A DNA stretch of 64,000 nucleotides from Candidatus Omnitrophota bacterium (GCA_013203315.1 JABMQJ010000001.1:16382-80381), one strand, 5' to 3'. Counted from the first letter of the stretch, positions 9,004-62,373 are shown. Made by a program: numbers and translations. Notes: a model not told the origin generated them from the sequence alone.

Positions 9004-9906
9004 TTATTTTTTGCGCGACAGAAAACTAAAGGCGTTTAAAAGCGCCTTGGACCCTTCTCCCGCCGCTATAATTATTTGTTTTGCCGGTATGTCGGTAACG
9101 TCTCCGGCAGCAAAGATGCCGGTAACGTTTGTCTCGTTAGAAGAATTTATCTTGATCTCGCCTTTTTCATTCTTATCCAGCTCTTTGGCAAAGTCGGAAT
9201 TCGGCATGAGCCCGATTTCTACAAAAATACCCTGCAGGGTAAGCGTTTTTTCTTTCGCTTTCTCTTTTATCTTTATGCCGGTAACCATTTTATCACCAAT
9301 GACTTCGGTCACACGGGTATCGTTTAAGATAGTCACGTTTTCGGCTCCTTCAACCTTGTCCTGCATGATTTTATCCCCGGTAAGCTCCGGGGTAATGTTT
9401 ATAAGGTGAACGTGCTTCGCTATTTTCATAAGTTGAAGGGTTGCGTCTAGGCCGGCATTCCCGCCGCCTATGACCGCTACGTCCTTTCCCGCAAAAATGG
9501 GCCCGTCGCATGTGGCACAATACGTAACCCCTTTGTTCTTGAACTCTTTTTCTCCGGGAACACCAAGTTCTTTTGAATGCTTACCTGAGGCTACTATCGC
9601 GGTTTTAGTTTCATACACGTCTTTATTGGTTTTAATTGAAATCAGAGCGCCCTTCTTTTTTAGCTCCAAAACACCTTCTTCTTTTAAGGGGACCTTGTAT
9701 TTTTTCATGTGCTCTTCAAATTTCGATACCAGATTAGCACCCGTAATGAATTGATAGCCTGTAAAATTTTCTATGTCACCGCTCCAGGCGGTCTGTCCCC
9801 CGATATCCTTGGAAATAACCAAAAAATTAATTCTCTTGCGGGCCGCGTATACGCTTGCAGTTATGCCTGCGGGTCCTGCTCCTATTATTATGAGATCATA
9901 CACCAT
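9004..9906 (-). CDS. trxB: thioredoxin-disulfide reductase
   Basis: GAGPAG FAD motif, CATC redox-active disulfide and GGGNAG NADPH motif; 300 aa. Confidence 0.9.
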   Translation of the reverse strand: MVYDLIIIGAGPAGITASVYAARKRINFLVISKDIGGQTAWSGDIENFTGYQFITGANLVSKFEEHMKKYKVPLKEEGVLELKKKGALISIKTNKDVYETKTAIVASGKHSKELGVPGEKEFKNKGVTYCATCDGPIFAGKDVAVIGGGNAGLDATLQLMKIAKHVHLINITPELTGDKIMQDKVEGAENVTILNDTRVTEVIGDKMVTGIKIKEKAKEKTLTLQGIFVEIGLMPNSDFAKELDKNEKGEIKINSSNETNVTGIFAAGDVTDIPAKQIIIAAGEGSKALLNAFSFLSRKK

Positions 9907-9915
9907 GTTGCCTCT

Positions 9916-11085
9916 CTAAAATATCTTATTAGCTATAAATCCAAGCACAATTACCTGCGGCACGGTTATAACAGGGAGCCAGATGGCTACGCGCCTTCCC
10001 ACGTTGTGCCATAAAAGGCCTATTTCGGTATAATCCGTAACTACGCCCCCCATTAGAAAAACAAAGCTATTGCCGAGAGCGCCGGTTTGCCTGAATATCT
10101 CGAATGCCATGGGCGCTGAGCCTTCGGAGCATACCTCTATAATAGTGGCTATTCCAAGCGTTATAAAAAGCCCGAGCACTGTCGGGCCCATATAATCATG
10201 GAAAAAGTTTGGCGGAATGTACGCCCCGGCTAAACTTGCCAGGCCCATACCTATAAGTACCCACCATAGCACCATGTTTGCCAGGGTAATTGTCCCGGCA
10301 TATATACCCTTCGCGTCAGCTTTAAGTGAGTCAGCAGAAAATTTATATTCCTTGAACCTTTTACGGATATCGGCCAGTACGGAAAAATCGTCTTCTGTTT
10401 CGATTATATTTTTGTTCTTTTCGATAAGGTTTTTCTTTTCAAGAACCTGGAAAATAAGCCCTGTCACTATCGCAATTAAAAATGCGGAAAATATTATATA
10501 CAGGGCTTTTAAACCGAAAAAACCTAGAAGCATTATTGTAAGCGTGAGATTGGACCATGGGCTTGCCAGCAAAAATGCCACAACCCCGGGATTGGATGCG
10601 CCCTTTTTGTGTAGCTCGATGGAAAGCGCTAAAATTCCGTGCGAGCACGCACTCATAAAAAACCCAAGGATAACCGAATAAAAAATAGTGCGCTTTCTTG
10701 GTTTTGCCAGTATGTGGGAAATATACTCCCGCGGAACGTAATAATCTAATAATCCGCCTAAAAATAAGCCGAGTATGATCGCCCACCAGATGGTTTTAAG
10801 ATAGCTAAAAAGAGACAGCCTGAAAGCCGTAAGAAAAGGTATAACATAAGATAGAAGGGCAAGCCCTGTTAAAACCGCGGCAACGATAATTGTTTTATTC
10901 TTATAAAAAGGGACGGTTGGCGCGGCAAGGCAGGCTGCCTGAATTACGTTTTTGGGGGTTTTGTTCTGTCCGGCGAATTTCTCAAGGCAAGTCTTGCTGC
11001 AGAAAAAATAAGTTTTTCTGTTTTGCGTCAGTTTAAGGCCGGTCTTTTCGTTAACCGACATCCCGCATATCGGATCCTTCGTCAT
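9916..11085 (-). CDS. permease (COG0701-like) with N-terminal YHS/TRASH metal-binding domain
   Basis: N-terminal DPICGMSV...FCSKTC is a TRASH/YHS-type motif, followed by about 10 TM helices. Confidence 0.6.
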   Translation of the reverse strand: MTKDPICGMSVNEKTGLKLTQNRKTYFFCSKTCLEKFAGQNKTPKNVIQAACLAAPTVPFYKNKTIIVAAVLTGLALLSYVIPFLTAFRLSLFSYLKTIWWAIILGLFLGGLLDYYVPREYISHILAKPRKRTIFYSVILGFFMSACSHGILALSIELHKKGASNPGVVAFLLASPWSNLTLTIMLLGFFGLKALYIIFSAFLIAIVTGLIFQVLEKKNLIEKNKNIIETEDDFSVLADIRKRFKEYKFSADSLKADAKGIYAGTITLANMVLWWVLIGMGLASLAGAYIPPNFFHDYMGPTVLGLFITLGIATIIEVCSEGSAPMAFEIFRQTGALGNSFVFLMGGVVTDYTEIGLLWHNVGRRVAIWLPVITVPQVIVLGFIANKIF

Positions 11086-11087
11086 GA

Positions 11088-11333
11088 TTATATACCCAGG
11101 CTCTCCTTGATGGCGTCTTTGTCAAAGCCGGTAATGATTTTACCGTCGATTTCCAGAACGGGCACGCCCATCTGGCCCGATTTATCAACCATCTCCTGCG
11201 CCTTCTCGGGATTTGTCGCAACATCGATATTCTCAAACTCTATATTGTTATCTTTCAAAAACTGCTTTGCTTTTATGCAATACGGACATGTAGGCGTGGA
11301 ATAAACTTTAACATTTTTTGCCATAAGTGTCAC
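11088..11333 (-). CDS. glutaredoxin
   Basis: CPYC active site and thioredoxin fold; 81 aa. Confidence 0.8.
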   Translation of the reverse strand: MTLMAKNVKVYSTPTCPYCIKAKQFLKDNNIEFENIDVATNPEKAQEMVDKSGQMGVPVLEIDGKIITGFDKDAIKESLGI

Positions 11334-11341
11334 CCCTTTAA

Positions 11342-11821
11342 TTAATCTAAAACCGCTTTAAGCTCGACTAATTGCCTCAAATGATCCTTTTCCTCATTAA
11401 TAACCACATCAATCATCTTATTGTCTTCCCCGGGCACGAGTTTCTTCATGCCTTCATAAAAGAGAATGGAGAATTTTTCGGCATTAATACCCAAATCAAG
11501 CGCTTCTTTCTCATTTTTTACATTTTTCGCGGTTTCTTTTCCCTTGTTTTTTTGAGCAAACACCTTGCCCTCGGCCAACGCGCGTATGTACGCGAAATAT
11601 TCTTCCGGATAGGCCCCTTCCGGCGCATCCGTCTTCACCGAATCCAGCATCTTCTGAAAGGTCTCGCGATGTTTTTCCTCTTCATCCGTTAGATGCCTAA
11701 AAATATCTTTCGCTTTTTCGTTTTTAGACTGCTTCGCCAAAATGTCATAAAAATCTTTTCCGTTTATTTCTATCTGGACCGCCAGTTCCAACACTTCGCT
11801 TATGGCAAATGTATCAGCCAT
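11342..11821 (-). CDS. rubrerythrin-like ferritin-fold diiron protein
   Basis: Motifs GKDFYD and EEEKHRETF, plus a C-terminal EEKDHL ExxH motif; 159 aa. Confidence 0.55.
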   Translation of the reverse strand: MADTFAISEVLELAVQIEINGKDFYDILAKQSKNEKAKDIFRHLTDEEEKHRETFQKMLDSVKTDAPEGAYPEEYFAYIRALAEGKVFAQKNKGKETAKNVKNEKEALDLGINAEKFSILFYEGMKKLVPGEDNKMIDVVINEEKDHLRQLVELKAVLD

Positions 11822-12261
11822 TATAGTTCAACCTCCTTAATCCACGCCCCGTGCACAGTACAAAATTCTATAGCGGCTAATTTTCCGCTGTTTGCTTTAA
11901 GGTGCAAAGCTGCTGCGGGATTAAGTTTTTCAGGGGTTAAATGAACCCTTGCGATAAATTCCTTATCAAGATAAAAATCGATATGATTAATGTAGTGTTG
12001 CGGCTGCATGGGATGGAGGATCTGCCCCATCTTTACATGCGCGTCTACGCAACCTTCCGGTATCAAGCCGCATTTCCTTAAAACAGTAATAACCGGCACG
12101 TGCTTTTTATCGCCTTCTGTTAAATTCTTTGGATCAGCCGGTGTATTTATAGCGTCTTTTTCCTGAAATGATGCTTTCGGCGCCCCGCATACAGGACAGT
12201 TATCAGGCGCACTTCCGTTTATCGCAATATAACCACAAACCTTGCATACATAACCTTTCAT
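11821..12261 (-). CDS. superoxide reductase (desulfoferrodoxin/neelaredoxin family) with N-terminal rubredoxin-like CxxC-x15-CxxC domain
   Basis: N-terminal CKVCGY...CPVCG, followed by the SOR signature EGDKKHVPVI (EKHVP-like). Confidence 0.8.
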   Translation of the reverse strand: MKGYVCKVCGYIAINGSAPDNCPVCGAPKASFQEKDAINTPADPKNLTEGDKKHVPVITVLRKCGLIPEGCVDAHVKMGQILHPMQPQHYINHIDFYLDKEFIARVHLTPEKLNPAAALHLKANSGKLAAIEFCTVHGAWIKEVEL

Positions 12262-12273
12262 AAATCACCCCGC

Positions 12274-12864
12274 TTAGTAGTTCTCACACACAACTTCGTA
12301 ATAGCTCTGAGGATGCTCGCACGCGGGACATACGTCCGGCGCGGCTTTTCCCTCATGCAAGTATCCGCAGTTACGGCATTTCCATTTAACAACAGCGTCC
12401 TTTTTGAACACCTTACCGTCTTTTATGTTCTTCAAAAGTTTTCTGTATCTTTTTTCGTGTTGCTCTTCAACTTCAGCGATCTCTTTGAACTGATCGGCTA
12501 CGTCTTCGAAGCCTTCTTTTCGTGCTGTTTCTGCGGCTTCTTTGTAGAGCTTTGTCCATTCCATGTTTTCTCCGGCTGCGGAAGCTTCCAGGTTCTTGGC
12601 TGTATCGTTAATTATGCCTGCCGGGTAGGAGGCTTGAATCTCCACGTCCCCGCCTTCAAGGAGTTTAAAGAACCTTTTTGCGTGTTCTTTTTCATTGTCG
12701 GCCGTTTCCAGAAAGATCGCGGCTATCTGCTCATATCCGGCCTTCTTTGCTACGCTTGCAAAATACGTGTAGCGGTTTCTTGCCTGTGACTCCCCTGCAA
12801 AAGAAGCCAGTAGATTGTGTTCGGTTTTAGTGCCCTTGATAGACTTTGTCCTCGTTTTCTGCAT
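12274..12864 (-). CDS. rbr: rubrerythrin
   Basis: N-terminal ferritin-like diiron domain (EHNLLASFAGESQARNRY, EKEH) plus a C-terminal rubredoxin domain (CRNCGY...CPAC). Confidence 0.9.
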   Translation of the reverse strand: MQKTRTKSIKGTKTEHNLLASFAGESQARNRYTYFASVAKKAGYEQIAAIFLETADNEKEHAKRFFKLLEGGDVEIQASYPAGIINDTAKNLEASAAGENMEWTKLYKEAAETARKEGFEDVADQFKEIAEVEEQHEKRYRKLLKNIKDGKVFKKDAVVKWKCRNCGYLHEGKAAPDVCPACEHPQSYYEVVCENY

Positions 12865-12876
12865 ATTTCACCCCTT

Positions 12877-13290
12877 TTATTTCAAAAAATCCATGTAAAT
12901 CGCCAGCAGCAACGCTGCTGCGGATAAAACAAATATAAAAAAGTAATTTATTCTTTCTTTCCTGGACCCCACGCCGCAAAGAATAGCGCCTATTGTCTCG
13001 TAGTCTTTCTTTTCGAGATTTTTTTGATTGTTAATTTTGCTGATAAGGCCCTGCTTTGCTATTAGCCTTGCCCTGTTTTGATTTATTCTGTATTTATAAA
13101 TAAAAAATGCCAGGAATCCGCCTATTCCTACATACCATGCTATCTTAGCATAAAGCGGGTTTAGGTGCATTAAAACAGTTACAAGCCTGACAGCTACTGT
13201 TGCTATAAGCCCTATTACAACGAAACCCCACGAAGCCAGGGAATCTTTACAATTTTTGTATTCACTGCACTTTATACATGTTTTTTTCAT
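12877..13290 (-). CDS. hypothetical membrane protein with Cys-rich N-terminus
   Basis: Starts MKKTCIKCSEYKNCKD and has 3 predicted TM segments. Confidence 0.4.
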   Translation of the reverse strand: MKKTCIKCSEYKNCKDSLASWGFVVIGLIATVAVRLVTVLMHLNPLYAKIAWYVGIGGFLAFFIYKYRINQNRARLIAKQGLISKINNQKNLEKKDYETIGAILCGVGSRKERINYFFIFVLSAAALLLAIYMDFLK

Positions 13291-14000
13291 TAGTATCCCG
13301 CGAAATTCTCAATCCTGATTTTATCGTTCCCAAGTGCAAGCTTATCTTTAAGGACACTCACCATGGCCCCTACCATGTTTGGAGGGCCGCATATATAAAA
13401 TATTCTTTCTTTGTAATCCGGAATTTCCTCTTTTATCATGGCATCGGTTATATAACCGGTTCTGCCCTTCCATATTTTTTTATCTATGTCAGGCGAGGTG
13501 AGCGTGTGCACAACACGCAAGTTGCCGCGCCCGGCCATGTCTTCGAAATCTTTCTCGAATATAATATTATCTTCCGTGCGGTTACTGTATAGTAATACTA
13601 TATCCGTTTTTAGCTTTTTGTCTATGACAAATTTACACATGCTCCTTATCGGAGTAATCCCTATGCCGCCTGAAAGAAACGCTATTTTTTCACATTCCCC
13701 TTCAAATGTGAATTTGCCGAGGGGCATCTTTATTTTTGCGATGTCGCCGGTTTTTAGCTTGTCCAGGGCCTTTGAAAATTCGCTTTCTGTTATTCTTTTT
13801 GTAAATTCGATGTAACCTGTTTCCGTAGGTGAGTTCGAAAACGAAAAATGCTTTGCCTTATCCTCGTTACCTACCTTGATCGTAAGCGTAAAAAACTGGC
13901 CCGGCTTGAAGCCTTCCCCCGGTTTTTCTCCGAACCTGAAGCTTTTCACGGTATTTGTCCGCTCTATTACATCTATAACGCGCGTTTCGAATTCAACCAT
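13290..14000 (-). CDS. FNR-like oxidoreductase, FAD/NAD(P)-binding domain protein
   Basis: Motifs PGQFFTL and FLSGGIGITP; no Fe-S motif. Candidate rubredoxin or ferredoxin reductase. Confidence 0.7.
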   Translation of the reverse strand: MVEFETRVIDVIERTNTVKSFRFGEKPGEGFKPGQFFTLTIKVGNEDKAKHFSFSNSPTETGYIEFTKRITESEFSKALDKLKTGDIAKIKMPLGKFTFEGECEKIAFLSGGIGITPIRSMCKFVIDKKLKTDIVLLYSNRTEDNIIFEKDFEDMAGRGNLRVVHTLTSPDIDKKIWKGRTGYITDAMIKEEIPDYKERIFYICGPPNMVGAMVSVLKDKLALGNDKIRIENFAGY

Positions 14001-14001
14001 T

Positions 14002-14409
14002 CTATTTACCTTTTTTAATCAAGGATCCTATGCTAATTGATTTTAAATCGGATACTATGTGTTTCTGTATCATGTCCAATTTTCCTTTTAAGGCGCAGGT
14101 CCTGATGTGAGGGCACAGGCTTTTTTTGAAAATATGTTCGTTGCATTTTAAAGGCCCCTGGAATATTTTCATTACATCGGCAACGAATATCGCGCCGGCG
14201 GCGCGTGATAATTCAAAACCCCCGCCTTTTCCTTTATAGGATTTCAGGAGCCCCGACTTATTCATGCGCTGTAATATCTTCCGCAGGAAGGGGCGCGGAA
14301 TTTTCAAATCGCGCACCAGTTTCTTTACCGAAACTATGCTCTTTTTGCGCTTTGCGATATAGCAAAGCGCCCTTATCGCGTAATCAGTGTCTCGTGTAAC
14401 TAATTTCAT
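14002..14409 (-). CDS. Rrf2 family transcriptional regulator (IscR/NsrR-like)
   Basis: Rrf2 wHTH N-terminus (DYAIRALCYIA) and C-terminal Cys residues. Confidence 0.8.
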   Translation of the reverse strand: MKLVTRDTDYAIRALCYIAKRKKSIVSVKKLVRDLKIPRPFLRKILQRMNKSGLLKSYKGKGGGFELSRAAGAIFVADVMKIFQGPLKCNEHIFKKSLCPHIRTCALKGKLDMIQKHIVSDLKSISIGSLIKKGK

Positions 14410-14960
14410 ATGCTATGCGCCACCACTTCCGATAAAACAACAATATCTTCGGTTCCAAAAATATCCGTAATGCTTTTGTCAAAAAGAAGATTGGCTTCCG
14501 GCCCAAATTCTTCATCCCCGCGCCAGAGCGTTATAAGGAAAGGCGTGCTCTCCTCGATTGTATCCAAGACTACGCTTACGTCCGCAAGCTCGGCTTTTTT
14601 AGCTCTGAAGCGCTCAACTAGCGTTAAAAGGGCTTCGGGATTTTTACCGTACTTTCGCGTAATCGTATTAATTACACGCTTCTTAAAATTTGGATAATAC
14701 CCTTCGCCGCCTACTAATTCCTTAAAAGAGATCCACTCGCCCTTTATTGAAGGCAGTCCTTTGATTTTGCGTATCAGGTAATGCAAAATCAAAATGGACG
14801 TATAAACTTTTGCTGGAACGTTGCATGAAACGGAAAAAACGGTTTTCTTGTCTACGTTAACCTCGTAATCATCGCCCAAAAACCGCAAAGAATGAGTCCT
14901 CTCCTCCATAACTTGCGCAAGACGCTCCCACGCATTGTTTAAAGCGACTTCGTATTCCAT
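14406..14960 (-). CDS. hypothetical protein (possibly DUF3786-like)
   Basis: The ORF track starts it at 15005, but an unannotated rubredoxin gene ends at ~14960 with a TAATG overlap onto MEYEV, so the start is probably the internal Met. Confidence 0.4.
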   Translation of the reverse strand: MEYEVALNNAWERLAQVMEERTHSLRFLGDDYEVNVDKKTVFSVSCNVPAKVYTSILILHYLIRKIKGLPSIKGEWISFKELVGGEGYYPNFKKRVINTITRKYGKNPEALLTLVERFRAKKAELADVSVVLDTIEESTPFLITLWRGDEEFGPEANLLFDKSITDIFGTEDIVVLSEVVAHSI

Positions 14961-15118
14961 TAAACCGGCTCGAACTTGTCTTTCCCAACCCCGCATTCCG
15001 GGCAAACCCAGTTCTCCGGTAAGCTTTCAAAAGATGTTCCGGGCTTTGCGCCGCTTTCCGGGTCGCCTTTTTCAGGATCATACACATACTGGCATATGGT
15101 GCATACGTATTGTTGCAT
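14960..15118 (-). CDS. rubredoxin
   Basis: Hand translation: [52 protein letters not shown]. This is the classic rubredoxin CxxC...CPxCG pattern, preceded by a strong SD (AAGGAGGAAGGC). Absent from the ORF track because it is under 60 aa. Confidence 0.8.
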
Positions 15119-15128
15119 GCCTTCCTCC

Positions 15129-15350
15129 TTATACTGATATAACTTCTTTTACTTCAGGCACTTCTTGTTTTACAATTCTTTCAACGCCGGCTTTTAAGGT
15201 CATCTGGCTCATTGGGCAACATCCGCATGCGCCGGTGAGTTTCACCTTGACGACGCCATCAGGTGTAACGTCTACAAGCACAACGTCTCCGCCGTCAGCC
15301 TGAAGTGATGGTCTTATTTTGTTTAGTGCAGCTTCTACTCTTTCTTTCAT
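15129..15350 (-). CDS. NifU-like (Nfu-type) Fe-S cluster assembly domain protein
   Basis: CGCCPMS motif; 73 aa NifU C-terminal-domain fold. Confidence 0.8.
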
Positions 15351-15370
15351 TTTGACCTCCGATTTTTTTA

Positions 15371-15859
15371 CTATTTTCTTTTTACAAGCTCTCCGTCTAC
15401 CTCAGAAATACCTTTTTCGTCTTTTCCTGCTTTACTGATTTTCTCGAGAATCCCGGCCGGTGTGGCCTCTTCCTCTTTCTGCTCTTTCACGTACCACTGC
15501 AAAAAGTCCTCTGTGGTTTTATCGTTTTCCTCCTGGGCCAGTTTAACGAGGTTATTGATTAACCCCGTAACTTTCTTTTCGTGCGCGAGGGTCTTTTCGA
15601 AAAGGTCCGGGCCTGAAGTGAAATCCTGCGGCGGATTATCAATAGCCTTTAGCGTGACCCTTTGGCCCTCTGCGTGCACGTAATCAAACATCTTTTTCGC
15701 GTGAAAAATCTCTTCGTTCCACTGCTTATAAAACCAGTTGGCAAAACCGGCTAGCCCTTTTGACGCCGCATATGCGGACATCCCGAGATAAAAGTAAGCA
15801 GAGTATATTTCCTTATTAATCTGCTCATCTAAAGCGTCTGTCATCTTTTTACTTAACAT
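15371..15859 (-). CDS. ftn: ferritin (non-heme)
   Basis: Motifs EIYSAYFYLGMS and EEIFHAKKMFDY are ferritin ferroxidase-centre motifs. Confidence 0.85.
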   Translation of the reverse strand: MLSKKMTDALDEQINKEIYSAYFYLGMSAYAASKGLAGFANWFYKQWNEEIFHAKKMFDYVHAEGQRVTLKAIDNPPQDFTSGPDLFEKTLAHEKKVTGLINNLVKLAQEENDKTTEDFLQWYVKEQKEEEATPAGILEKISKAGKDEKGISEVDGELVKRK

Positions 15860-16112
15860 TTTTCCCTCCCTCTTTCGTTTTCTTATTGTTTAGATATTTC
15901 TTATAAAGTTTTTCTCCTACGCACTCTTTGCCATATTTACACCAATCAAGGCATGTTGCGCCCCCGTTTCGTAATACGGTTTTTTTGCACTTCGGGCACC
16001 TCGCCTTCACCTCATCTGTCCATATCTCCATCTCTTCGCTGCAAAAAGGGCATTTTATACTCTCTGGATGCGGCTGACTAAAACTTTGTGACCCCGGACA
16101 CTTAAAATTCAT
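15849..16112 (-). CDS. small Cys-rich zinc-ribbon-like protein
   Basis: CPxxC...CPFC...CPKC...C pattern; 87 aa. Confidence 0.35.
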   Translation of the reverse strand: MNFKCPGSQSFSQPHPESIKCPFCSEEMEIWTDEVKARCPKCKKTVLRNGGATCLDWCKYGKECVGEKLYKKYLNNKKTKEGGKNVK

Positions 16113-16942
16113 TTCCTATCCCCTTTAATGCCGATATTAACGTCAGTAAACGGTATATTTTTACCTGAGGCCGCAAGCGCTTCCTGAACAATATTCAAAA
16201 GCCCGAAACAGCAAGGGACCTCCATATGCGCGCAGGTTACTGACTTTATGTTATTGGTTTTAAAGATTTCGGTGAACTTGTTCTTGTAGTATTCCGCGTC
16301 GTCTAACTTGGGACAGCCTACCAGCAGGATCTTCCCCTTCAATAAATCATCCTGGAAGCCTGCGTATGCGAATGAAGTGCAATCCGCCGCTATGAGTAAA
16401 TCCGAGTTGTCAAGATACGGAGCAAATGCCGGGACAAGCTTGATCTGGACCGGCCAGTTCTCGAGTTGCGACACGCCGCTTGGAGTGACTCCGCCCTTTT
16501 TGGTTTCTTTTCCGCGTAAATCCACTATTTTCGTTCCGGGACATCCAGAAGGTCCGCCGGCGTGCTTGTGCGCGTACGCTTTTTCAGTTAACGGGTTTTT
16601 TATGCCCTTTTCCTTCAGGACCTCTAATGCCTGATTTAGAAATTTTGTCTCTCCGTGTTCTTTCAGGTGTTCAAGGTGCGCTATTATTACGTTCTTCCCC
16701 TGTTTTACAATATTTTGCATTACTTTCTTTTCATCGTACTTTTCGGCTTCTCTTTCCTCTATATTTATCGCCCCTTCCGGACAATGCCCTATGCAGGCGC
16801 CCAGGCCGTCACAGAATAGATCACTTATAAGACGCGCCTTTCCGTCTATAATTTGAAGCGCCCCTTCCGGACAGTTTGGAATACACAGACTGCAACCGTT
16901 GCATTTCTTCTCATCGATTTTTATTATTTTTCTCTTTGCCAT
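16109..16942 (-). CDS. 4Fe-4S dicluster domain protein with C-terminal Cys-containing domain
   Basis: Motifs CNGCSLCIPNCP and CDGLGACIGHCP. Start taken as MAKRK, preceded by GGGAGGGAGAGC. Confidence 0.6.
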   Translation of the reverse strand: MAKRKIIKIDEKKCNGCSLCIPNCPEGALQIIDGKARLISDLFCDGLGACIGHCPEGAINIEEREAEKYDEKKVMQNIVKQGKNVIIAHLEHLKEHGETKFLNQALEVLKEKGIKNPLTEKAYAHKHAGGPSGCPGTKIVDLRGKETKKGGVTPSGVSQLENWPVQIKLVPAFAPYLDNSDLLIAADCTSFAYAGFQDDLLKGKILLVGCPKLDDAEYYKNKFTEIFKTNNIKSVTCAHMEVPCCFGLLNIVQEALAASGKNIPFTDVNIGIKGDRK

Positions 16943-16966
16943 AATGCTCTCCCTCCCTTGTTGCCT

Positions 16967-16998
16967 AAATGATACCACTTTAGTATCATTATGTCAAG
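16967..16998 (-). promoter_or_regulatory. promoter (TTGACA-17-TATCAT on minus) overlapped by palindrome AATGATACC-N5-GTATCATT
   Basis: Minus strand reads CCCTTGACAtaatgatactaaagtggTATCATttagg...GGGAGGGAGAGCattATG. The palindrome covers the spacer and -10. The same operator recurs at 21785-21807. Confidence 0.5.
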
Positions 16999-17006
16999 GG
17001 ATTTAT

Positions 17007-17972
17007 TTACTTTTTTAAAGCCCCTTCGCAGCTTGAGCCCGCGCCTGCCGTACAGCAGTAACAGTGATTTTCGAAAATTATTTCCCTCTCCTGCAATTCA
17101 TCAGGGCTTATGTCACTTACCTTTATCGTTTTATCACTCTTATCCTTAAGGGACAAGTTGAGCGCCTGGTTAAAGTCGCAATCGTACAAAGTACCGTCCC
17201 AACCGACGCTTAACAGTTTGCGGCACATTATATTACCGGCTACGTTCTCATTAAAATTATCCATTAAGAGTTTCATGTACTTGTCAAAATTGCCGTTTGC
17301 CTTAAGATACTGTTCAAATCTTTTTATCGGGGCATTCGTGATCGTCAAAAGATAGCTGAATGTCACCTGATACTTTTCTTTTAGAACTTTTTTGTAGTCT
17401 CTTTCGAGTCCGGACTGTTCTCCCGGTAAAACAGCGCCTCCCGGGTTATAGACAAGGTCAAGCACGAGATTTTCTTCTTTCCCGTATCCTAATTCATTGA
17501 GAATCCTGAGCGCTTTAATGCTCTTGTCAAAAACACCTTCGCCTCTTTGCTTGTCCACGTTCTCCCGGGTATAACAGGGCATCGAGCAAACAAGGTGGAC
17601 ACCTTGATCCTTGTAAAATTGCGCCATGCCCTCCATGCCCGGCTCAAGTAATACTGTAAGGTTACTTCTTACCTTTATTTCTTTTGCGTGTGGTTTGGCT
17701 TTTTCTATAAAATACTTAAAGTTAGGGTTAAGTTCGGGACACCCGCCTGTTACATCCAGGATAAGGTCCTTCTTTTTGGATAAAAATATTACGATATCGC
17801 CCATCACTTCTTTGGACATTATTTTAGCGCCACTCGGGCTTGCGTCAACATGGCAGTGCGCGCACTGCTGGTTACATCTATTGCCTAGATTCACTTGTAG
17901 CGTCTCCGGGTTAACGCGCCTTGAATAGGTTCTATCAATTGTGTAGACCTTTTCCTTAAAATCGCTTTTCAT
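17007..17972 (-). CDS. radical SAM / Cys-rich domain protein (ArsS-like, TIGR04167-type)
   Basis: CNQQCAHC radical SAM motif and a C-terminal CYCCTAGAGSSC Cys-rich tail. Confidence 0.7.
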   Translation of the reverse strand: MKSDFKEKVYTIDRTYSRRVNPETLQVNLGNRCNQQCAHCHVDASPSGAKIMSKEVMGDIVIFLSKKKDLILDVTGGCPELNPNFKYFIEKAKPHAKEIKVRSNLTVLLEPGMEGMAQFYKDQGVHLVCSMPCYTRENVDKQRGEGVFDKSIKALRILNELGYGKEENLVLDLVYNPGGAVLPGEQSGLERDYKKVLKEKYQVTFSYLLTITNAPIKRFEQYLKANGNFDKYMKLLMDNFNENVAGNIMCRKLLSVGWDGTLYDCDFNQALNLSLKDKSDKTIKVSDISPDELQEREIIFENHCYCCTAGAGSSCEGALKK

Positions 17973-17974
17973 TT

Positions 17975-19405
17975 TTACCTTAATATTTTGATGAAGAATT
18001 TCATCATGGCTTTAAACCAACCCGAAGACATGACCGACATATAACGCTGGTCAGCGGAACTTTTAACAACTTGAGACAATGTCGGATATATGTGTATAGA
18101 TGAGCTTAATTTATCAATGCTTAGCTTTGCCGACTTGGCAAGCACATATTCATGTATGAGCTCTCCTGCATTTGCCCCTACTATGTGCGCGCCAAGGATC
18201 TTGCCTTTCTTATCGCAAATAACCTTAGCCATCCCCTCCTTTTGGAGATCCGTAACAGCCCTATCGTTTGCGCTATATTGGGATCTGTATACATTTACAT
18301 TCTTATATTGCGAGCGCGCCTCAACTTCGGTAAGCCCGAGGTGCGCAAGTTCGGGTTCTGTAAATGTGCACCAGGGCACAGCGCCATAGTCGACCGCTCG
18401 CTTGAAAGGAAGAAGCGCGTTACCCAGGGCAATAATTGCCTGGTATTCTGCGATGTGGCTAAATTGATACGGCCCTACAATATCTCCGGCTGCGTATATA
18501 TTTGGAGCGTCTGTTTTTAACGTCTTATCTGCCTCTATACCTTTATTACTATACTTAACTCCGGCTTTTTCCAAGTCAAGGCCCCGAACGTTAGCAGATC
18601 TGCCAACCGCGACAAGAACCCTTTCAGAGGTAACCGTGGAAAGTTTTTTATCTTTGTCTTCGATGGTTACGGTAACGCTTTGTCTGTTTTTACTGAACTT
18701 AACCGCTTTTTTACCTGCATAAATTTTCACGCCGTCTTTTACGAGGTTTTCGCGTAGTACCCGGGCAAGTTCCTCGTCTTCCCTGAAAAGTATCCTGTCA
18801 AACATCTCTACGATCGAAACCTTAACGCCGAGCCTCGCAAGCGCCTGGGATAGCTCTATGCCGATGGGGCCTCCGCCAAGAACCGTTATCGATTCCGGGA
18901 GCGCTTCCAGATCGAAGATGTTTTCATTGGTAAGATAGTCGATGTCTTTGAGGCCCTCTATGGGTGGGACCATTGGATGCGAACCCGTGCATATGATAAA
19001 TCTCTTTGCGGACATGCGCTTACCGTCTAATAATATGGTTTTATTATCAACGAATTTGGGAGCCCCGAAAAGTACCTTTATGCCTTTTTTTTCAAAAACA
19101 CCGGCGGGATGGTGAGAGCTTATTTCCTTTATAATACTTCTTACGTGCGGCATTACGTTGTCGGTGTCAAATTTTGCGCCTTGTGCGGAGGATATTCCGT
19201 ATTTGTCCGAGTGCTTAAGCAGCGAAAAAACCTGAGATGACTTTAAGAGCGCTTTAGAGGGAATACATCCGTACCACGTACAGTCGCCACCCAGTTTATT
19301 CTTCTCAATAAGGGCCGTCTTAGCACCCATCATGGCTCCACCCGTAGCTGCCACTAGGCCCGCCGCTCCGCCGCCTATAACGATTAGATCGTAATCAGGT
19401 TTCAT
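17975..19405 (-). CDS. class I pyridine nucleotide-disulfide oxidoreductase (dihydrolipoamide dehydrogenase / MerA-like)
   Basis: Motifs DLIVIGGGAAG and GGDCTWYGCIPSK (redox-active CxxxxC), plus a dimerisation domain. Confidence 0.8.
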   Translation of the reverse strand: MKPDYDLIVIGGGAAGLVAATGGAMMGAKTALIEKNKLGGDCTWYGCIPSKALLKSSQVFSLLKHSDKYGISSAQGAKFDTDNVMPHVRSIIKEISSHHPAGVFEKKGIKVLFGAPKFVDNKTILLDGKRMSAKRFIICTGSHPMVPPIEGLKDIDYLTNENIFDLEALPESITVLGGGPIGIELSQALARLGVKVSIVEMFDRILFREDEELARVLRENLVKDGVKIYAGKKAVKFSKNRQSVTVTIEDKDKKLSTVTSERVLVAVGRSANVRGLDLEKAGVKYSNKGIEADKTLKTDAPNIYAAGDIVGPYQFSHIAEYQAIIALGNALLPFKRAVDYGAVPWCTFTEPELAHLGLTEVEARSQYKNVNVYRSQYSANDRAVTDLQKEGMAKVICDKKGKILGAHIVGANAGELIHEYVLAKSAKLSIDKLSSSIHIYPTLSQVVKSSADQRYMSVMSSGWFKAMMKFFIKILR

Positions 19406-19420
19406 CTATTTTTCTTTCCT

Positions 19421-19599
19421 CATTGCGGCTTCATCTGAGTTTTTAAATAATTATAGCACTTTTTGCATATTCCATCTTCCTCTTTCCAATCAGGGTGTTT
19501 CTTTTTTATTTCGTTAATGATGTGCTCTTCGGTGTGCGGTATAATAACGAGTAATTCTCTGGGAAGTGATTTCCCGCATGTAGGGCAAGTAAATTCCAT
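19421..19599 (-). CDS. small Cys4 zinc-ribbon protein
   Basis: Hand translation: MEFTCPTCGKSLPRELLVIIPHTEEHIINEIKKKHPDWKEEDGICKKCYNYLKTQMKPQ. It has a strong SD (GAGGAGGAC ATG). Under the ORF track cutoff. Confidence 0.4.
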
Positions 19600-19611
19600 A
19601 ATGTCCTCCTC

Positions 19612-20295
19612 TTATTTTTTGTTTCGTTTTTTAACACGCGTGTAAATTAAAGGTATTGCTATAATAAGAATAAGTAAACCAAGCGCAACCAAAAACTCCG
19701 TAGAAAGTAAATCTTTAAGGTTTTTTACTTCGCCGAGCGTTCCCCCGAAAAACGCGGATATTACAACCCCCGGGATAATGCCTAAAAACGTCGCCAAAAA
19801 ATAATCTTTTAATTTTATCTTTGAAAGCCCACAGGCGTAGTTTAATACTTCGTAGGGCACTATCGGGATAAGTCTGAAGAGAAGAACTGTTACGAACCCC
19901 TTTCTTTCCAGGAGCTCGTTCAGTTTTTTACCCTTGCCCTTAAGTATCCTGTCAACCAGGCTCCTTCCGAAGAATCGCGATATGAAAAAGGTGGAAGTTG
20001 TTCCGAGCATAGCACCTGTCATTAAATACACGGCACCCCAGACTTTACCGAAGGCAAGGCCTGCCGTAAGTGAAAGTAGGGCTATCGGCGGGATGATCGA
20101 AATCGTATTCAAGGCATATGCTATTATGTATATGACAGCGGCAAGGGTTCCGAAACCCTGTATGTAATCCCTTATGCTTGAGGGCGTGAGAGACTCCAGG
20201 TTGAGGCACTGGCATTTTACTATCCACCAGATACCTGCTACAAGTAAAACCCCTATGAGTACTTTAACTAAATTTTTAAGAATCTTCGTGTCCAT
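19612..20295 (-). CDS. TVP38/TMEM64 (DedA-family) membrane protein
   Basis: Motif FRLIPIVPYEVLNYACG is characteristic of DedA/SNARE-associated proteins. Confidence 0.75.
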   Translation of the reverse strand: MDTKILKNLVKVLIGVLLVAGIWWIVKCQCLNLESLTPSSIRDYIQGFGTLAAVIYIIAYALNTISIIPPIALLSLTAGLAFGKVWGAVYLMTGAMLGTTSTFFISRFFGRSLVDRILKGKGKKLNELLERKGFVTVLLFRLIPIVPYEVLNYACGLSKIKLKDYFLATFLGIIPGVVISAFFGGTLGEVKNLKDLLSTEFLVALGLLILIIAIPLIYTRVKKRNKK

Positions 20296-20915
20296 TTCGC
20301 CGATTTTTTATTTTTCTTTAGATCCCTAACAAGACGAAACAATTCAAGCGGTGTGTCAACATCATACCACTTATCCAAAAGAGCTACTTTTTTCTTAAGG
20401 CGCTTTGCCTTTTTAAGAGTGTCGCCCAACACCTCTTGAGAGCTCCATTTTATATTACTAAAGAGGGCACCACAAGGCTTTTTAAGTCCTATCAGGTAAT
20501 ACCCACCGTCACGGCTCGGCCCCAATACGAGGTCGTTTTTCTCGAGCTTGCGGAATGCTTTTTTAACGAGATCGGAAGGCAGGTTAGGGGCATCCGAACC
20601 GATAATAAGCGTTTTCGAATCCTCGTCTTTCGAGGCGTTCCTGAAAGCATTGTGCATTCTCCGGCCGAGATCTTTCCCCTTTTGCCTGTAGAATTTAAAG
20701 CGCGGCGCTATTTTTTTAAGGCTTCCGGGATTTTTTGATCTTGAATCATAAGCCATTATCCTCCGGTCGCATTTCACGCTTTTTGCAAGGTTCACGGTGT
20801 CTTTTAAAAAAGCCTTATATAAATCCACGCGATCCGTATCAGAGAGAAAGCTCGATAGTCTTGTTTTTATATCGTGTTTTTTCGGTTCTTTCGCGAAAAT
20901 GACTAAATTCTTCAT
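20268..20915 (-). CDS. DUF2064 family protein (TIGR04282-type; partner of a GT2)
   Basis: Motifs IFAKEPKKHDIKTRL and DGGYYLIG; paired with the upstream GT2 as in the TIGR04282/TIGR04283 gene pairs. Confidence 0.7.
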   Translation of the reverse strand: MKNLVIFAKEPKKHDIKTRLSSFLSDTDRVDLYKAFLKDTVNLAKSVKCDRRIMAYDSRSKNPGSLKKIAPRFKFYRQKGKDLGRRMHNAFRNASKDEDSKTLIIGSDAPNLPSDLVKKAFRKLEKNDLVLGPSRDGGYYLIGLKKPCGALFSNIKWSSQEVLGDTLKKAKRLKKKVALLDKWYDVDTPLELFRLVRDLKKNKKSAKWTRRFLKI

Positions 20916-21586
20916 CTCAAATCTTCATACAGATCTTTTATTTTATCAAGCGGGAATTTCAGGCAGTGTAATAACGTTACGTAATTATGTAGTAATATGG
21001 TGCTAAGCACTCCCTTTTTCTCCCATCTTCTCGGAGAAACGCTAACCTTGTTGCATAACACAACGGTTCTGCCTGACCTTCGCAACTTTCTAGTGAAAAG
21101 CACGTCCTCCATGATCGGGACTTCGGGGAAACCTTTAAGTTTTAAGAATTTATCTTTTTTTGTAAATATTGCCTGATCACCGTAAAAGACTTTAGTAGCC
21201 CTGGCTCTTAAGTTACCCTGCATTTCAAGTATCCTATATATCAGTCCTTTTCTATCTATCCTTTGCGTAAGGCAACCGCCTACACAACTGCTATTTTTTA
21301 ATCGTTTTTCAACGGCCGCGACTGTTCTGGGAGAAATTACATTATCGGCGTGTAAGAATAGGAGGATATTGCTTTCGGCGTGCCCTGCCCCACAATTCAT
21401 CTGGAGGGCACGGCCCTTGCCGGTGCGCACTACTTTGCCATAAACCTTAGCGACTTCTACACTTCTGTCAGAGCTACCGCCGTCTACAAAGATGAGCTCC
21501 GCTTTTTCGGCAAGCCTGCGAAACCCGGGCAGGTTCTTTGACAGGATCTTTTCTTCGTTATATATGGGAATAATTATGCTAACCAT
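20912..21586 (-). CDS. family 2 glycosyltransferase (TIGR04283-like)
   Basis: Motifs VSIIIPIYNEE and VDGGSSD. The ATG at ~21586 is preferred over the GTG at 21598. Confidence 0.75.
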   Translation of the reverse strand: MVSIIIPIYNEEKILSKNLPGFRRLAEKAELIFVDGGSSDRSVEVAKVYGKVVRTGKGRALQMNCGAGHAESNILLFLHADNVISPRTVAAVEKRLKNSSCVGGCLTQRIDRKGLIYRILEMQGNLRARATKVFYGDQAIFTKKDKFLKLKGFPEVPIMEDVLFTRKLRRSGRTVVLCNKVSVSPRRWEKKGVLSTILLHNYVTLLHCLKFPLDKIKDLYEDLR

Positions 21587-21655
21587 GTCCCCTAACACTT
21601 CGTGGGGACAGATCTCTCATCAAGCATGCTTAACAAGATGAGGAGATCCGTCCCC
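21587..21655 (-). promoter_or_regulatory. 5' leader alternative hairpins upstream of the GT2 gene
   Basis: A long inverted repeat, GGGGACGGATCTCCTCATC...GATGAGAGATCTGTCCCC, lies on the minus strand. Its 3' arm GTCCCC can instead pair with GGGGAC, which overlaps the GT2 SD and ATG. Confidence 0.4.
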
Positions 21656-21672
21656 ATATTTTTTCGGGCAGT

Positions 21673-21756
21673 TTAGAGTCTTACCCGGGACGATCTACTG
21701 CAGCCTTCGTCACAATGTGCTACAGGGCGTAACATGTACCTAATTGTAATTTGCAT
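21673..21756 (-). CDS. candidate leader peptide / uORF (27 aa)
   Basis: A strong SD (AAGGAGGGA) sits 7 nt upstream of ATG; peptide MQITIRYMLRPVAHCDEGCSRSSRVRL. It lies between the promoter at 21785-21814 and the leader hairpin. Confidence 0.3.
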   Translation of the reverse strand: MQITIRYMLRPVAHCDEGCSRSSRVRL

Positions 21757-21784
21757 CTTAATCCCTCCTTTTTAGTTCTGTATT

Positions 21785-21814
21785 AATGATACCTAATAGG
21801 TATCATTCTGTCAA
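21785..21814 (-). promoter_or_regulatory. promoter (TTGACA-17-TATCAT) with 11-1-11 perfect palindrome AATGATACCTA-A-TAGGTATCATT
   Basis: Minus strand reads CTCTTGACAgaatgatacctattaggTATCATtaat. The -35 overlaps the cusA stop codon. This is the same operator family as at 16967-16990. Confidence 0.5.
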
Positions 21815-24951: not shown

Positions 24952-24966
24952 GATACAACTCCTCGC

Positions 24967-26199: not shown

Positions 26200-26218
26200 T
26201 TTATTTTCCTCCCGGTCG

Positions 26219-27481: not shown

Positions 27482-27490
27482 GGTACCACC

Positions 27491-27772: not shown

Positions 27773-27825
27773 GGTAAAAGCCTCTCTTTCCGTGATACAA
27801 GTATACCATACCCCCCTACCCTATG

Positions 27826-27915: not shown

Positions 27916-28030
27916 TCCGTTAGCCCTCCCCCTTCTATTGGTGCAACCTAGGCATAAAGCCCGCTAAAATAATTCGCTTGAAAAGTCCACTTATGTGTGT
28001 TATTAATATGTATTACGAAAGGAACGAATA

Positions 28031-62337: not shown

Positions 62338-62373
62338 ATTAACTCCCTACTTGCCGCCGGCAAGCTTTATTGC

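Follow-up and report, generated by a model that had tools for sequence, protein, structure and literature searches.

The window (the whole stretch of DNA analysed, 64 kb of a Candidatus Omnitrophota genome) contains two 23-bp dyads of the form AATGATAC-N7-GTATCATT, at 16968-16990 and 21785-21807. Each dyad occupies the 17-nt spacer and covers the -10 element of its own minus-strand promoter, and the two promoters were among the three best promoter-like matches between 14000 and 28200. The upstream gene, for an RND pump, ends with a TGA stop codon that falls inside the -35 hexamer of promoter 2.

16968..16990, minus strand: operator copy 1, AATGATACTAAAGTGGTATCATT on the minus strand and AATGATACCACTTTAGTATCATT on the plus strand; a perfect dyad but for one mismatch
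16969..16997, minus strand: promoter 1, TTGACA (16997-16992), 17 nt, TG-extended TATCAT (16974-16969)
21785..21807, minus strand: operator copy 2, AATGATACCTATTAGGTATCATT on the minus strand, other-strand form AATGATACCTAATAGGTATCATT; perfect 11-1-11 palindrome
21786..21814, minus strand: promoter 2, TTGACA (21814-21809), 17 nt, TATCAT (21791-21786)

The palindromic sites and the genes behind them

With up to three mismatches allowed, these were the only two matches to the dyad in the 64 kb, where shuffled sequence gave an expectation of 0.03 matches and none of 100 shuffles contained two or more. A looser half-site scan of the window found nothing else comparable beyond sites 1 and 2. The layout is one of 8-bp arms, AATGATAC and GTATCATT, around a 7-bp centre, and the same 8-7-8 arrangement was present in the window and, among the matches listed, in 128 related sites. 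The centre has TG at positions 14-15, which makes an extended -10 element and accounts for the residual conservation there. Other assemblies of this organism (L001, L002) carry operator copy 2 without any change. Two known operator types were tried on the dyads and rejected: the Fur/PerR/Zur box, a 19-bp 9-1-9 or 7-1-7 inverted repeat of the GATAATGATAATCATTATC type, with which the arms share only TGATA; and the CsoR/RcnR type, as the dyads have no G/C tract and the CsoR-like gene of the window has a G-tract site of its own.

The genes downstream of the two sites are all on the minus strand and are listed here from each promoter onward.

21673..21756, minus strand: first cistron of site 2, 27-aa peptide MQITIRYMLRPVAHCDEGCSRSSRVRL, of a conserved peptide family with core YMLRPVAHCKEGC
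17007..21586, minus strand: site-2 operon body, TIGR04283 GT through ArsS
21586-20912, minus strand: TIGR04283 GT (219 bits, cut-off 182)
20915-20268, minus strand: TIGR04282/DUF2064 (186.8 bits, cut-off 134)
20295-19612, minus strand: DedA/VTT, site-2 operon
19599-19420, minus strand: 59-aa Cys-rich ORF, site-2 operon
19405-17975, minus strand: FAD disulfide oxidoreductase ("Lpd-like", a MerA-like flavoprotein), site-2 operon
17972-17007, minus strand: radical-SAM ArsS (TIGR04167, 420.1 bits, cut-off 300)
9004..16942, minus strand: site-1 operon body, tightly packed on one strand, with genes listed as far as 9004
16942-16109, minus strand: Fer4/AF_0155 (4Fe-4S) protein, first gene of the site-1 operon
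15118-14960, minus strand: rubredoxin, site-1 operon
14002..14409, minus strand: Rrf2-family regulator, 135 aa, proposed cognate repressor, within the site-1 operon
9906-9004, minus strand: thioredoxin-reductase-like, last listed gene of the site-1 operon

Site 1 lies after ArsS and ahead of the 4Fe-4S protein. The order after Fer4/AF_0155 is an 87-aa Zn-ribbon protein, ferritin, a NifU-like protein, rubredoxin, DUF3786 and Rrf2; past Rrf2 come an FNR-like reductase, a 137-aa membrane protein, rubrerythrin and desulfoferrodoxin, followed by rubrerythrin-like, glutaredoxin-like, YHS-ArsP_1 permease and thioredoxin-reductase-like genes. In the site-2 operon, the ArsS, TIGR04282 and TIGR04283 proteins all score above their curated NCBIfam cut-offs, by which the cargo of this operon qualifies as a putative arsenosugar-type gene cluster. 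No ORF resembling the arsenite methyltransferase ArsM was found in the 64-kb window; a relative (L008) has ArsM (NF008823, 342.7 bits, cut-off 263) at the equivalent position behind operator and peptide. The peptide family behind the operator consists of members of 25-30 aa and provides the first cistron in 38 of the at least 120 promoter-operator loci described below, and the 27-aa peptide of the window had no Pfam or NCBIfam match.

The earlier note had described a palindromic operator shared over the -10 of two TTGACA-17-TATCAT minus-strand promoters, with a perfect 11-1-11 palindrome at 21785; both sites were found, and the perfect symmetry was borne out. Its coordinates hold for site 2, but site 1 starts at 16968 and not at 16967, and CCCTTGACA is present at site 1 only, CTCTTGACA standing at site 2 instead. 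It correctly placed the 4Fe-4S and Zn-ribbon genes with site 1 and the GT2, DUF2064 and DedA genes with site 2, but the radical SAM and Lpd-like genes that it put under site 1 belong to the site-2 operon, and its "uORF" is instead the conserved peptide gene.

The operator and the Rrf2 gene in other genomes

We scanned species-representative genomes (596 Gb) with the pattern TTGACA-N0-1-AATGATAC-N7-GTATCATT, for which about 0.1-3 matches in 596 Gb were estimated by chance. At least 120 promoter-operator loci were found, mostly in Omnitrophota, a count that leaves operators in other promoter contexts unrevealed because the scan demanded promoter and operator together. The two palindromes are confirmed as real, and they are conserved among more than a hundred uncultured anaerobes. 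Additionally, the regions around sites 1 and 2 have no resemblance outside the promoter and operator elements, which means that the sites did not arise by recent block duplication.

Among the matches listed, 69 of the 95 loci with a readable downstream gene run began with Rrf2, and 72 contained it. About a quarter of the matches had no Rrf2 gene in the 8-kb block, and many of these end at the block edge. The other downstream genes, again per 95 loci among the matches listed, were Fer4/AF_0155 (52), Zn-ribbon (32), hybrid cluster protein (HCP; 29), FNR-like reductase (19), superoxide reductase (SOR; 13), flavodiiron protein (FDP; 12+3), rubredoxin (9) and AhpC-like (9+2), and the Rrf2 orthologue is followed by genes for ferredoxin-like protein, HCP, SOR, rubredoxin, FDP and rubrerythrin.

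This linkage was also tested independently of the DNA pattern, by fetching loci through Rrf2 homologues only (60-72% identical). In all six informative distinct homologue loci, the operator heads the operon that bears the Rrf2 gene. L008 has two operator sites, as in the window, and L010 has one; in L011, L012 and L014 the operator is 6-75 nt upstream of Rrf2, and in L013 a site with one arm mismatch lies 2.8 kb upstream, ahead of co-directional genes that include Rrf2. The layout expected of autoregulation, with an operator upstream of the regulator's own unit, was thus seen in 6 of 6 protein-chosen loci and in 69 of 95 pattern-found loci among the matches listed. As judged from these comparisons, the regulator and its putative operator are conserved as a pair across Omnitrophota. 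Some MAGs that bear the labels of further anaerobic candidate phyla also have the operator with an Rrf2 orthologue; several such phyla are represented, all the genomes compared being MAGs whose phylum labels may be unreliable.

The further genomic copies that the earlier note had anticipated therefore exist, and together with the unlike flanks these copies in other genomes show that the two sites are not a recent promoter duplication only. Its proposal of a dimeric repressor co-regulating the redox operon and the glycosyltransferase/DedA operon is likewise supported, since a shared dyad-symmetric operator that overlies both the -10 and the spacer in each promoter implies such a repressor. Its assignment of that repressor to the Fur family fared poorly, as set out below.

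The candidate repressor and its rivals

The regulator encoded at 14002-14409 matched PF02082 (1e-28) and TIGR00738 (96.6 bits, cut-off 73.3). The top 38 structural matches to its AF2 model (pLDDT 82.8) were all Rrf2 proteins (TM about 0.75), the nearest structures being RsrR and T. potens IscR. A profile alignment with Streptomyces coelicolor NsrR (ScNsrR, 5n07) was full-length and placed D9, C92, C99 and C105 on Asp8, Cys93, Cys99 and Cys105. D9, C99 and C105 are invariant among 20 close homologues, and among the matches listed C99 and C105 are invariant in 72 operator-adjacent orthologues, 93% of which have Cys at position 92. The window protein has His there and carries an extra C89, so that its cluster chemistry may differ from that of the orthologues. 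The P38-N50 helix and K59-F65 wing, the DNA-reading parts, vary little or not at all among orthologues, matching the invariant operator arms. The regulator falls far below the NCBIfam equivalog cut-offs for NsrR, IscR and RirA; its best scores were 73 bits for RirA and 68 bits for the SUF regulator, with 52.9 bits for NsrR (NF008240, cut-off 182).

Taken on sequence evidence, the palindromes are most likely the sites of an iron-sulfur Rrf2-type repressor, not of Fur, with oxygen and nitric-oxide defence and the arsenosugar-type cluster as its predicted targets. We hold it to be highly probable that they are operators of the autoregulated Rrf2 protein at 14002-14409, acting as an NsrR-like Fe-S repressor released by O2 or NO, and the best reading of this protein is as an undescribed, autoregulated, NsrR-like repressor of putative Fe-S type.

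The Rrf2 protein could also bind the sites but sense iron or Fe-S supply, as do IscR and RirA, or arsenite on its Cys/His triad, in which case derepression would serve Fe-S homeostasis or arsenic handling. Ferritin, NifU, SufBC-like (L030, L043, L066), VIT1-like and NadA genes in the regulon suggest the former, as do the RirA and SUF regulator scores, which exceed that of NsrR (53 bits). Arsenite sensing would suit the ArsS cluster under the operator in the window and L018, the ArsM gene of L008 and the ArsP_1-family permease in the site-1 operon. However, arsenic genes occur at few of the more than 120 loci, the commonest enzymatic members of the regulon are the NO and O2 detoxifiers HCP, SOR, FDP, rubredoxin, rubrerythrin and AhpC, and the ligands, the N-terminal Asp among them, correspond to those of NsrR. 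From this regulon content and ligand conservation we infer that the signal would be O2 or NO, and we regard iron, Fe-S status or arsenite as unlikely signals.

It is very unlikely that the DNA-binding factor is another product of the regulon, namely the 87-aa Zn-ribbon protein, which co-occurs in 32 of 95 loci among the matches listed, or the 27-aa Cys/His peptide with its 38 first-cistron positions. Both are tied to the operator less consistently than Rrf2 and neither matches a DNA-binding family, whereas Rrf2 has a winged-helix domain and belongs to a family of regulators that bind just such 23-bp dyads.

In the earlier note's reading a Fur-family dimer (Fur, PerR or Zur) would bind these palindromes, whose half-sites AATGATA/TATCATT, with their TGATA, look like Fur-box hexamers. 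Rubrerythrin, SOR, rubredoxin and FDP are under PerR control in clostridia, and the gene string behind the operator of L014 includes a FUR gene at a distance of 5 kb. The window, however, contains no Fur-family ORF, FUR was found in none of 95 downstream gene runs among the matches listed, and the arms are 7 bp apart in a total of 23 bp, as against 9-1-9 or 7-1-7 in a Fur box. The operator tracks Rrf2 instead, in 69-72 of 95 loci among the matches listed and in all six protein-chosen loci. We consider the Fur reading largely refuted, and extremely improbable in any form.

Almost no weight can be given to the CsoR/RcnR-family repressor (27491-27772, same strand, 6 kb further upstream) as the protein that binds the palindromes, even though their ATACC...GGTAT core is CsoR-like. 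In CsoR-family operators, AT-rich inverted repeats surround a G/C tract; neither dyad has such a tract, and the typical G-tract site TAGGGTAGGGGGGTATGGTA (~27803-27822) lies between the -35 and -10 of the CsoR-like gene's own promoter. Furthermore, no match to this protein was found downstream of the operator among the at least 120 matches listed, and no Trns_repr_metal gene was called in the six homologue loci. It is equally implausible that the palindromes serve as hairpins in the RNA read through from the upstream genes, be it as terminators or as processing sites, or that they are a mere trace of promoter duplication lacking operator function: each region folds as RNA to about -15 kcal/mol (z about -4) and both sites directly follow a same-strand upstream gene, but neither is followed by a U-run, the dyad follows no co-directional gene in most related loci, what is conserved across phyla is the arm sequence itself in fixed register to the -35 and -10 and not pairing potential, and the two copies in the window have unlike flanks.

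Proposed regulation and comparison with known systems

In the proposed model, an Rrf2 dimer would bind the 23-bp dyad through the two 8-bp arms that flank the 7-bp centre. As the dyad spans the spacer and overlies the -10 in an otherwise near-consensus sigma-70 promoter, the bound repressor is predicted to block RNA polymerase. By analogy with NsrR, the DNA-binding form would carry an Fe-S cluster bound by Asp9 from one subunit together with Cys/His92, Cys99 and Cys105 from its partner. If O2, reactive oxygen species or NO damaged this cluster, the repressor would come off the DNA and repression of both promoters would be lifted. Promoter 1 would then yield a defence and Fe-S repair operon that includes the repressor itself (with ferredoxin-like protein, ferritin, NifU, rubredoxin, rubrerythrins, superoxide reductase, glutaredoxin and thioredoxin reductase), and promoter 2 the 27-aa Cys/His peptide followed by TIGR04283, TIGR04282, DedA, the MerA-like flavoprotein and ArsS.

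Among the closest known systems is ScNsrR (PDB 5n07, 7b0c; hmpA1, hmpA2 and nsrR operators), whose [4Fe-4S] ligands are Asp8, Cys93, Cys99 and Cys105 (PMC5411485) and whose 23-bp site has a central 7 bp without base contacts (PMC9338935). The window regulator shares its Rrf2 fold, aligns over the full length with all four ligand positions matched, and is predicted to bind a 23-bp dyad of the same 8-7-8 layout (PMC9338935); its role as an autoregulated repressor of NO- and O2-detoxifying genes is similarly predicted. However, identity is about 20%, the window protein has His for the first Cys, the arms are AATGATAC here as against AACACGAA...ACCAATT in hmpA1 and do not resemble the NsrR consensus, and the regulon is large and anaerobe-typical (HCP, SOR, FDP, rubrerythrin), with HCP and FDP frequent. 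No flavohaemoglobin (hmp) appeared as a target when the downstream genes were labelled from a set that lacked this protein.

IscR, RirA and RsrR have the same fold, and the known ones are Fe-S-dependent dimers on dyad operators at promoters, with Fe-S assembly and iron-storage genes among the targets. In contrast, the operators of IscR (29 bp, at hya) and RsrR (39 bp) have other sequences, the ligand pattern here is C/H-x6-C-x5-C plus Asp, unlike the ligand sets of IscR and RsrR, and the window regulator scores below every equivalog cut-off. HypR of S. aureus relies for sensing on a thiol-disulfide switch and not on an Fe-S cluster, and the window regulator reached 26.7 bits against the HypR equivalog cut-off of 180. 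The HypR-MerA system (PMC6067689) is alike in that an Rrf2 repressor, which regulates itself through an inverted repeat, has control of a MerA-like FAD disulfide oxidoreductase, such a flavoprotein being present in the site-2 operon. The PerR regulons of strict anaerobes (clostridia) comprise an equivalent gene set under an oxidant-inactivated repressor (cf. part of PMC11841134), but PerR belongs to the Fur family and not to Rrf2, and has another box geometry and other sensing chemistry. Finally, the uncharacterised Lachnospiraceae Rrf2 protein UniRef50_C0FN14 adjoins FDP and rubrerythrin genes, according to the relevant part of a 2026 preprint (PMC13404960). It comes from another phylum, and that part of the preprint reports no operator for it; it is independently proposed there to be an NsrR-like Fe-S Rrf2 protein with three Cys plus Asp8, encoded, as here, beside anaerobic oxygen-defence genes (PMC13404960).

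Two promoter-operator units and the genes behind them

Scanning the 64 kb for the dyad AATGATACC-N5-GGTATCATT with up to three mismatches returned exactly two matches, at 16968-16990 (site 1, one mismatch) and 21785-21807 (site 2, none), where shuffled sequences gave an expectation of 0.03 matches and none of 100 shuffles contained two. This confirmed the observation of the earlier note that two promoters share a palindrome; a looser, variable-spacer dyad scan found no further close match. On the minus strand, the first unit reads cccTTGACAtAATGATACTAAAGTGGTATCATTtagg, with 26 nt to the ATG of a 4Fe-4S protein, and the second reads gctcTTGACAgAATGATACCTATTAGGTATCATTaata, with 28 nt to the ATG of a 27-codon open reading frame (ORF). 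Both promoters were among the three best -35/-10 matches in a promoter scan of 14000-28200, each matching at 11 of 12 positions with a 17-nt spacer. The two regions showed no relatedness beyond the -35, dyad and -10, and a recent block duplication is therefore excluded as their origin. Gene order in the source, a Candidatus Omnitrophota MAG, as established by ORF calling with Pfam and NCBIfam scans, was as follows:

Upstream of site 2, minus strand: CsoR-like repressor, then CusCBA-like RND pump
21785-21807, minus-strand promoter: site 2 operator dyad
After site 2, minus strand, part 1: 27-aa ORF, TIGR04283 glycosyltransferase, TIGR04282 (DUF2064), DedA
After site 2, minus strand, part 2: 59-aa Cys-rich ORF, MerA/Lpd-like FAD disulfide oxidoreductase, radical-SAM ArsS (TIGR04167, 420 bits)
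16968-16990, minus-strand promoter: site 1 operator dyad
After site 1, minus strand, part 1: Fer4 ferredoxin-like protein (AF_0155), 87-aa Zn-ribbon protein, ferritin, NifU-like protein, rubredoxin, DUF3786, Rrf2 regulator
After site 1, minus strand, part 2: FNR-like reductase, membrane protein, rubrerythrin, desulfoferrodoxin, rubrerythrin-like protein
After site 1, minus strand, part 3: glutaredoxin-like protein, YHS-ArsP_1 permease, thioredoxin-reductase-like protein

This order places the radical-SAM and Lpd-like genes behind site 2, and their earlier assignment to the site-1 promoter was wrong. Because there is no terminator between ArsS and site 1, transcription that starts at site 2 may continue through the site-1 operon, and a repressor bound at site 1 would then also act as a roadblock to it.

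The RND pump operon directly abuts the site-2 operon: the TGA that ends the pump gene lies in the -35 hexamer of promoter 2 (21809-21814, minus strand), and the last codons of that gene contain a AAGAGCTT/AAGCTCTT hairpin. The 59-aa ORF (19420-19599, minus strand), located between DedA and the FAD oxidoreductase, contains two CxxC pairs (MEFTCPTCG...CKKCYNY) and is among the genes called in every assembly of the source organism. Downstream of the site-1 gene string lies a Rex-type redox-sensing repressor gene (7249-7905, minus strand), followed by a ferredoxin / FAD-NAD oxidoreductase / NADH-dehydrogenase-like gene set; a Rex-box search of the window gave no match above chance.

Operator and Rrf2 gene across genomes

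Two regulators are encoded near the dyads: the 135-aa Rrf2 protein by a gene of the site-1 operon (14002-14409, minus strand), and the CsoR-like protein by a gene 6 kb upstream. Loci were fetched via Rrf2 homologues alone, and were thus unbiased toward the DNA motif, before being scanned for the operator. All six informative loci carried it, and the only two without a site (L006 and L007) were on contigs that start inside the operon. Locus L008, whose Rrf2 protein is 72% identical to that of the window, has two sites as the window does, one before the same small ORF and then an arsenite methyltransferase gene, and the other before the Fer4/AF_0155 gene, the first of the Rrf2 operon. A single site was present at the head of the operon in L010 (70%). 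The operons of L011, L012 and L014 (60-64%) are rearranged, with Rrf2 as the first gene and the dyad and TTGACA 6-75 nt upstream, and in L013 a site with one arm mismatch was found 2.8 kb upstream of Rrf2, in front of a series of co-directional genes to which Rrf2 belongs. The operator accompanies the Rrf2 gene despite these changes in gene order.

Further copies in other genomes came from a scan of 185,579 species-representative genomes (596 Gb) with the pattern TTGACA-N0-1-AATGATAC-N7-GTATCATT, which returned at least 120 promoter-operator loci, where by our estimate 22 fixed bases would match by chance roughly 0.1-3 times. The matches listed were mostly from Omnitrophota; the others were labelled Elusimicrobia, Aminicenantes, Firestonebacteria, Auribacterota, Margulisiibacteriota/Saganbacteria, Atribacterota and 'Planctomycetia', labels that, being those of MAGs, need caution. 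Downstream ORFs were labelled by phmmer against the window proteins and a few others, and a readable co-directional run was present in 95 of the 120 loci listed. An Rrf2 orthologue (38-60% identical) was the first gene in 69 of these 95 runs and was found anywhere in the run in 72, so that operator and Rrf2 subfamily are co-localised and conserved. The other members of the listed runs were Fer4/AF_0155 (52), Zn-ribbon protein (32), hybrid cluster protein (HCP, 29), FNR-like reductase (19), superoxide reductase (SOR, 13), flavodiiron protein (FDP, 12+3), rubredoxin (9) and AhpC-like protein (9+2), along with rubrerythrin-like protein, PNPOx, glutaredoxin, thioredoxin reductase, ferritin and NifU. 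Among the genes that phmmer left unlabelled, some were read by eye from sequence as SufC/SufBD-like, NadA, CcdA-like and hemerythrin.

As the arms of the 120 scan sites were fixed by the search pattern, only the 7-bp centre was free to vary, and its consensus over the sites listed was T-A-(A/T)-T-A-T-G. Position 10 was A in 99 of the 120, mirroring position 14 (T in 107), and the TG at positions 14-15 makes the -10 element an extended one. The -35 touched the dyad in 87 of the listed sites and stood one extra base away in 33, giving 16- or 17-nt spacers. With this register fixed across sites, the dyad always covers the spacer and -10 of a near-consensus promoter, which is where repressors that exclude RNA polymerase classically bind. 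Promoters of MerR-type activators, in contrast, have over-long spacers of 19-20 nt. In two loci (L085, 852-886; L125, 3932-3954) TTGACA occurs on both flanks of the palindromic operator, and a single operator of this kind could serve two divergent promoters.

We consider it very probable that the palindromes are the operator of an autoregulated Rrf2 repressor. The Zn-ribbon protein and the 27-aa peptide also recur behind the operator and are rival candidates for its binder, but their linkage to it is less consistent than that of Rrf2, and neither belongs to any DNA-binding family. The CsoR-like repressor was rejected, as it has a G-tract operator of its own and never occurred with the dyad in the other genomes' loci examined. 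The promoter of its gene (TTGACA-18-TATACT, 27829-27800, minus strand) contains the G-tract site TAGGGTAGGGGGGTATGGTA in the spacer, as is typical of the CsoR family, and this site presumably controls the csoR-OEP-MFP-RND (Cus-like) operon. The assignment to Fur, PerR or Zur made in the earlier note fails on both geometry and gene association: the box geometry is wrong, the 64-kb window contains no Fur-family ORF, and a FUR gene was found in none of the 95 downstream runs listed. A role as RNA hairpin or terminator was dismissed, since the hairpins are stable (~-15 kcal/mol) yet neither is followed by a U-run; the conserved feature of the dyads is sequence at a fixed promoter register. A search of 16000-23000 for riboswitches or known RNAs in the leaders (Rfam, E<=1) gave one chance Histone3 match only.

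A conserved small peptide and arsenic-related genes

The 27-aa ORF behind site 2 (21673-21756, minus strand) can be aligned codon by codon with its counterpart behind the first L008 site (3663-3746), whereas the genes downstream of it differ between the two loci. Outside the window, a regex search identified the peptide in 48 of the 134 loci fetched, including about 45 of those from the pattern scan (L015-L134), with a length of 25-30 aa and a nearly invariant core, [IV]T[IV][KR]YMLRPVAHCKEGC. Its gene comes first behind the operator in 38 of the 120 loci listed, with the ATG 15-47 nt past the operator, and in L010 and L011 lies within the operon. Over 40 distinct DNA versions of the 13-codon core, the summed entropy at codon positions 1, 2 and 3 was 2.2, 0.8 and 15.1 bits. 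Variation confined almost entirely to third codon positions argues that the peptide is translated and under strong purifying selection, and what had been labelled a "uORF" is better described as a conserved peptide gene. The peptide matched no Pfam or NCBIfam family. Its H-C-x3-C motif suggests metal or redox chemistry. The interval from the peptide stop to the glycosyltransferase start contains a short GC stem-loop (21642-21655, minus strand; GGGGACGGATCTCC then TCATCTTGTT) that could be a weak attenuator; ACTGCCCG, just 3' of the peptide stop, is conserved in L008.

Behind this operator, arsenic-related genes recur in other Omnitrophota. In L008 (3622-4730), the arsenite methyltransferase gene that follows operator and peptide scored 342.7 bits against NF008823 (cutoff 263). 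In L018 the operator (4581-4603) lies directly before ArsS, FAD oxidoreductase and DedA genes and is a second, independent link to arsenosugar-type genes; a metagenome scan for ArsS returned two short loci only, with the operator in neither. Far more speculative, and in our judgement unlikely to hold as a whole, is the joint proposal that the peptide (YMLRPVAHCKEGC) is a previously unrecognised small metal- or redox-active protein, possibly a partner of the Rrf2 sensor (as co-sensor, anti-repressor, or donor of metal or clusters, for instance), and that the ArsS/ArsM-type genes recruited repeatedly to this operator in Omnitrophota possibly serve in oxidative or Fe-S stress and not in classical arsenic detoxification.

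The Rrf2 protein, its predicted signal and related systems

Across 20 orthologues the invariant residues were T8-D9-Y10-A11 at the N-terminus, P38, P40, F41, R43-Q47 and N50 in the recognition helix, K59, G60, G62-G64 and F65 in the wing, and C99, P100 and C105. Most orthologues have Cys at position 92; the window Rrf2 belongs to a subgroup with His there. The window protein and its closest relatives combine His92 with Cys89, and a further subgroup has His92 but lacks Cys89; the identity of the first cluster ligand seems to differ among family members. A full-length profile alignment to Streptomyces coelicolor NsrR (5n07) placed D9, C92, C99 and C105 on Asp8, Cys93, Cys99 and Cys105, so that the NsrR-type ligand positions are conserved; these residues are described in PMC5411485 as holding the [4Fe-4S] cluster, with Asp8 coming from the other subunit. 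An AF2 model of Rrf2 (pLDDT 82.8) had only Rrf2 proteins (RsrR, IscR, CymR, NsrR) among its top 38 structure matches, at TM ~0.75. The S. coelicolor NsrR site is also 23 bp long; the protein does not contact the bases of its central 7 bp specifically, and binding survives changes to them (PMC9338935). The window dyads share this 8-7-8 architecture but differ in arm sequence. NCBIfam scores (bits/cut-off) of 53/182 for NsrR, 52/208 for IscR and 73/193 for RirA show that the window Rrf2 is not an equivalog of any of these.

We infer that the holo (Fe-S) dimer would be the DNA-binding repressor, and that destruction or modification of the cluster by O2, reactive oxygen species or NO would lift repression at the promoters. 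If the palindromes are indeed the Rrf2 operator, O2 or NO is probably the signal; iron, Fe-S status or arsenite is a less probable alternative. A second Rrf2 paralogue is encoded in the window (61918-62346, minus strand), with a long, perfect inverted repeat, ATACTTTACTATGTT-N-AACATAGTAAAGTAT (~62374-62409, minus strand), that differs from the dyads and begins in the -10 of the paralogue's own TTGACA promoter. Each paralogue appears to have a private operator.

To our knowledge, Omnitrophota and several of the candidate phyla around it are almost entirely uncultured, and none of their transcription factors has been characterised. The present analysis offers them a concrete candidate regulator-operator pair with a defined 23-bp motif and a coherent regulon (HCP, SOR, FDP, rubredoxin, rubrerythrin and Fe-S repair genes), and the motif can be used to annotate oxygen- and NO-defence regulons in metagenomes and to read stress states from metatranscriptomes. 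Further interest comes from the recruitment of arsenosugar-type genes (ArsS, TIGR04282/3, ArsM) to a predicted redox-stress regulator, a clue to why strict anaerobes carry them, and from the strongly conserved 27-aa peptide gene brought to light here without any annotation. Our search of the literature on Rrf2 proteins with anaerobic O2/NO-defence genes or in Omnitrophota found no account of the motif or regulon. The hypothesis offered recently in PMC13404960 for an uncharacterised Lachnospiraceae Rrf2 protein encoded beside FDP and rubrerythrin genes resembles the present one. The Rrf2 protein described here would work like NsrR, IscR and RsrR of the same superfamily while falling outside each named equivalog, and where clostridia use PerR, an NsrR-like predicted Fe-S protein takes its functional place in these anaerobes.
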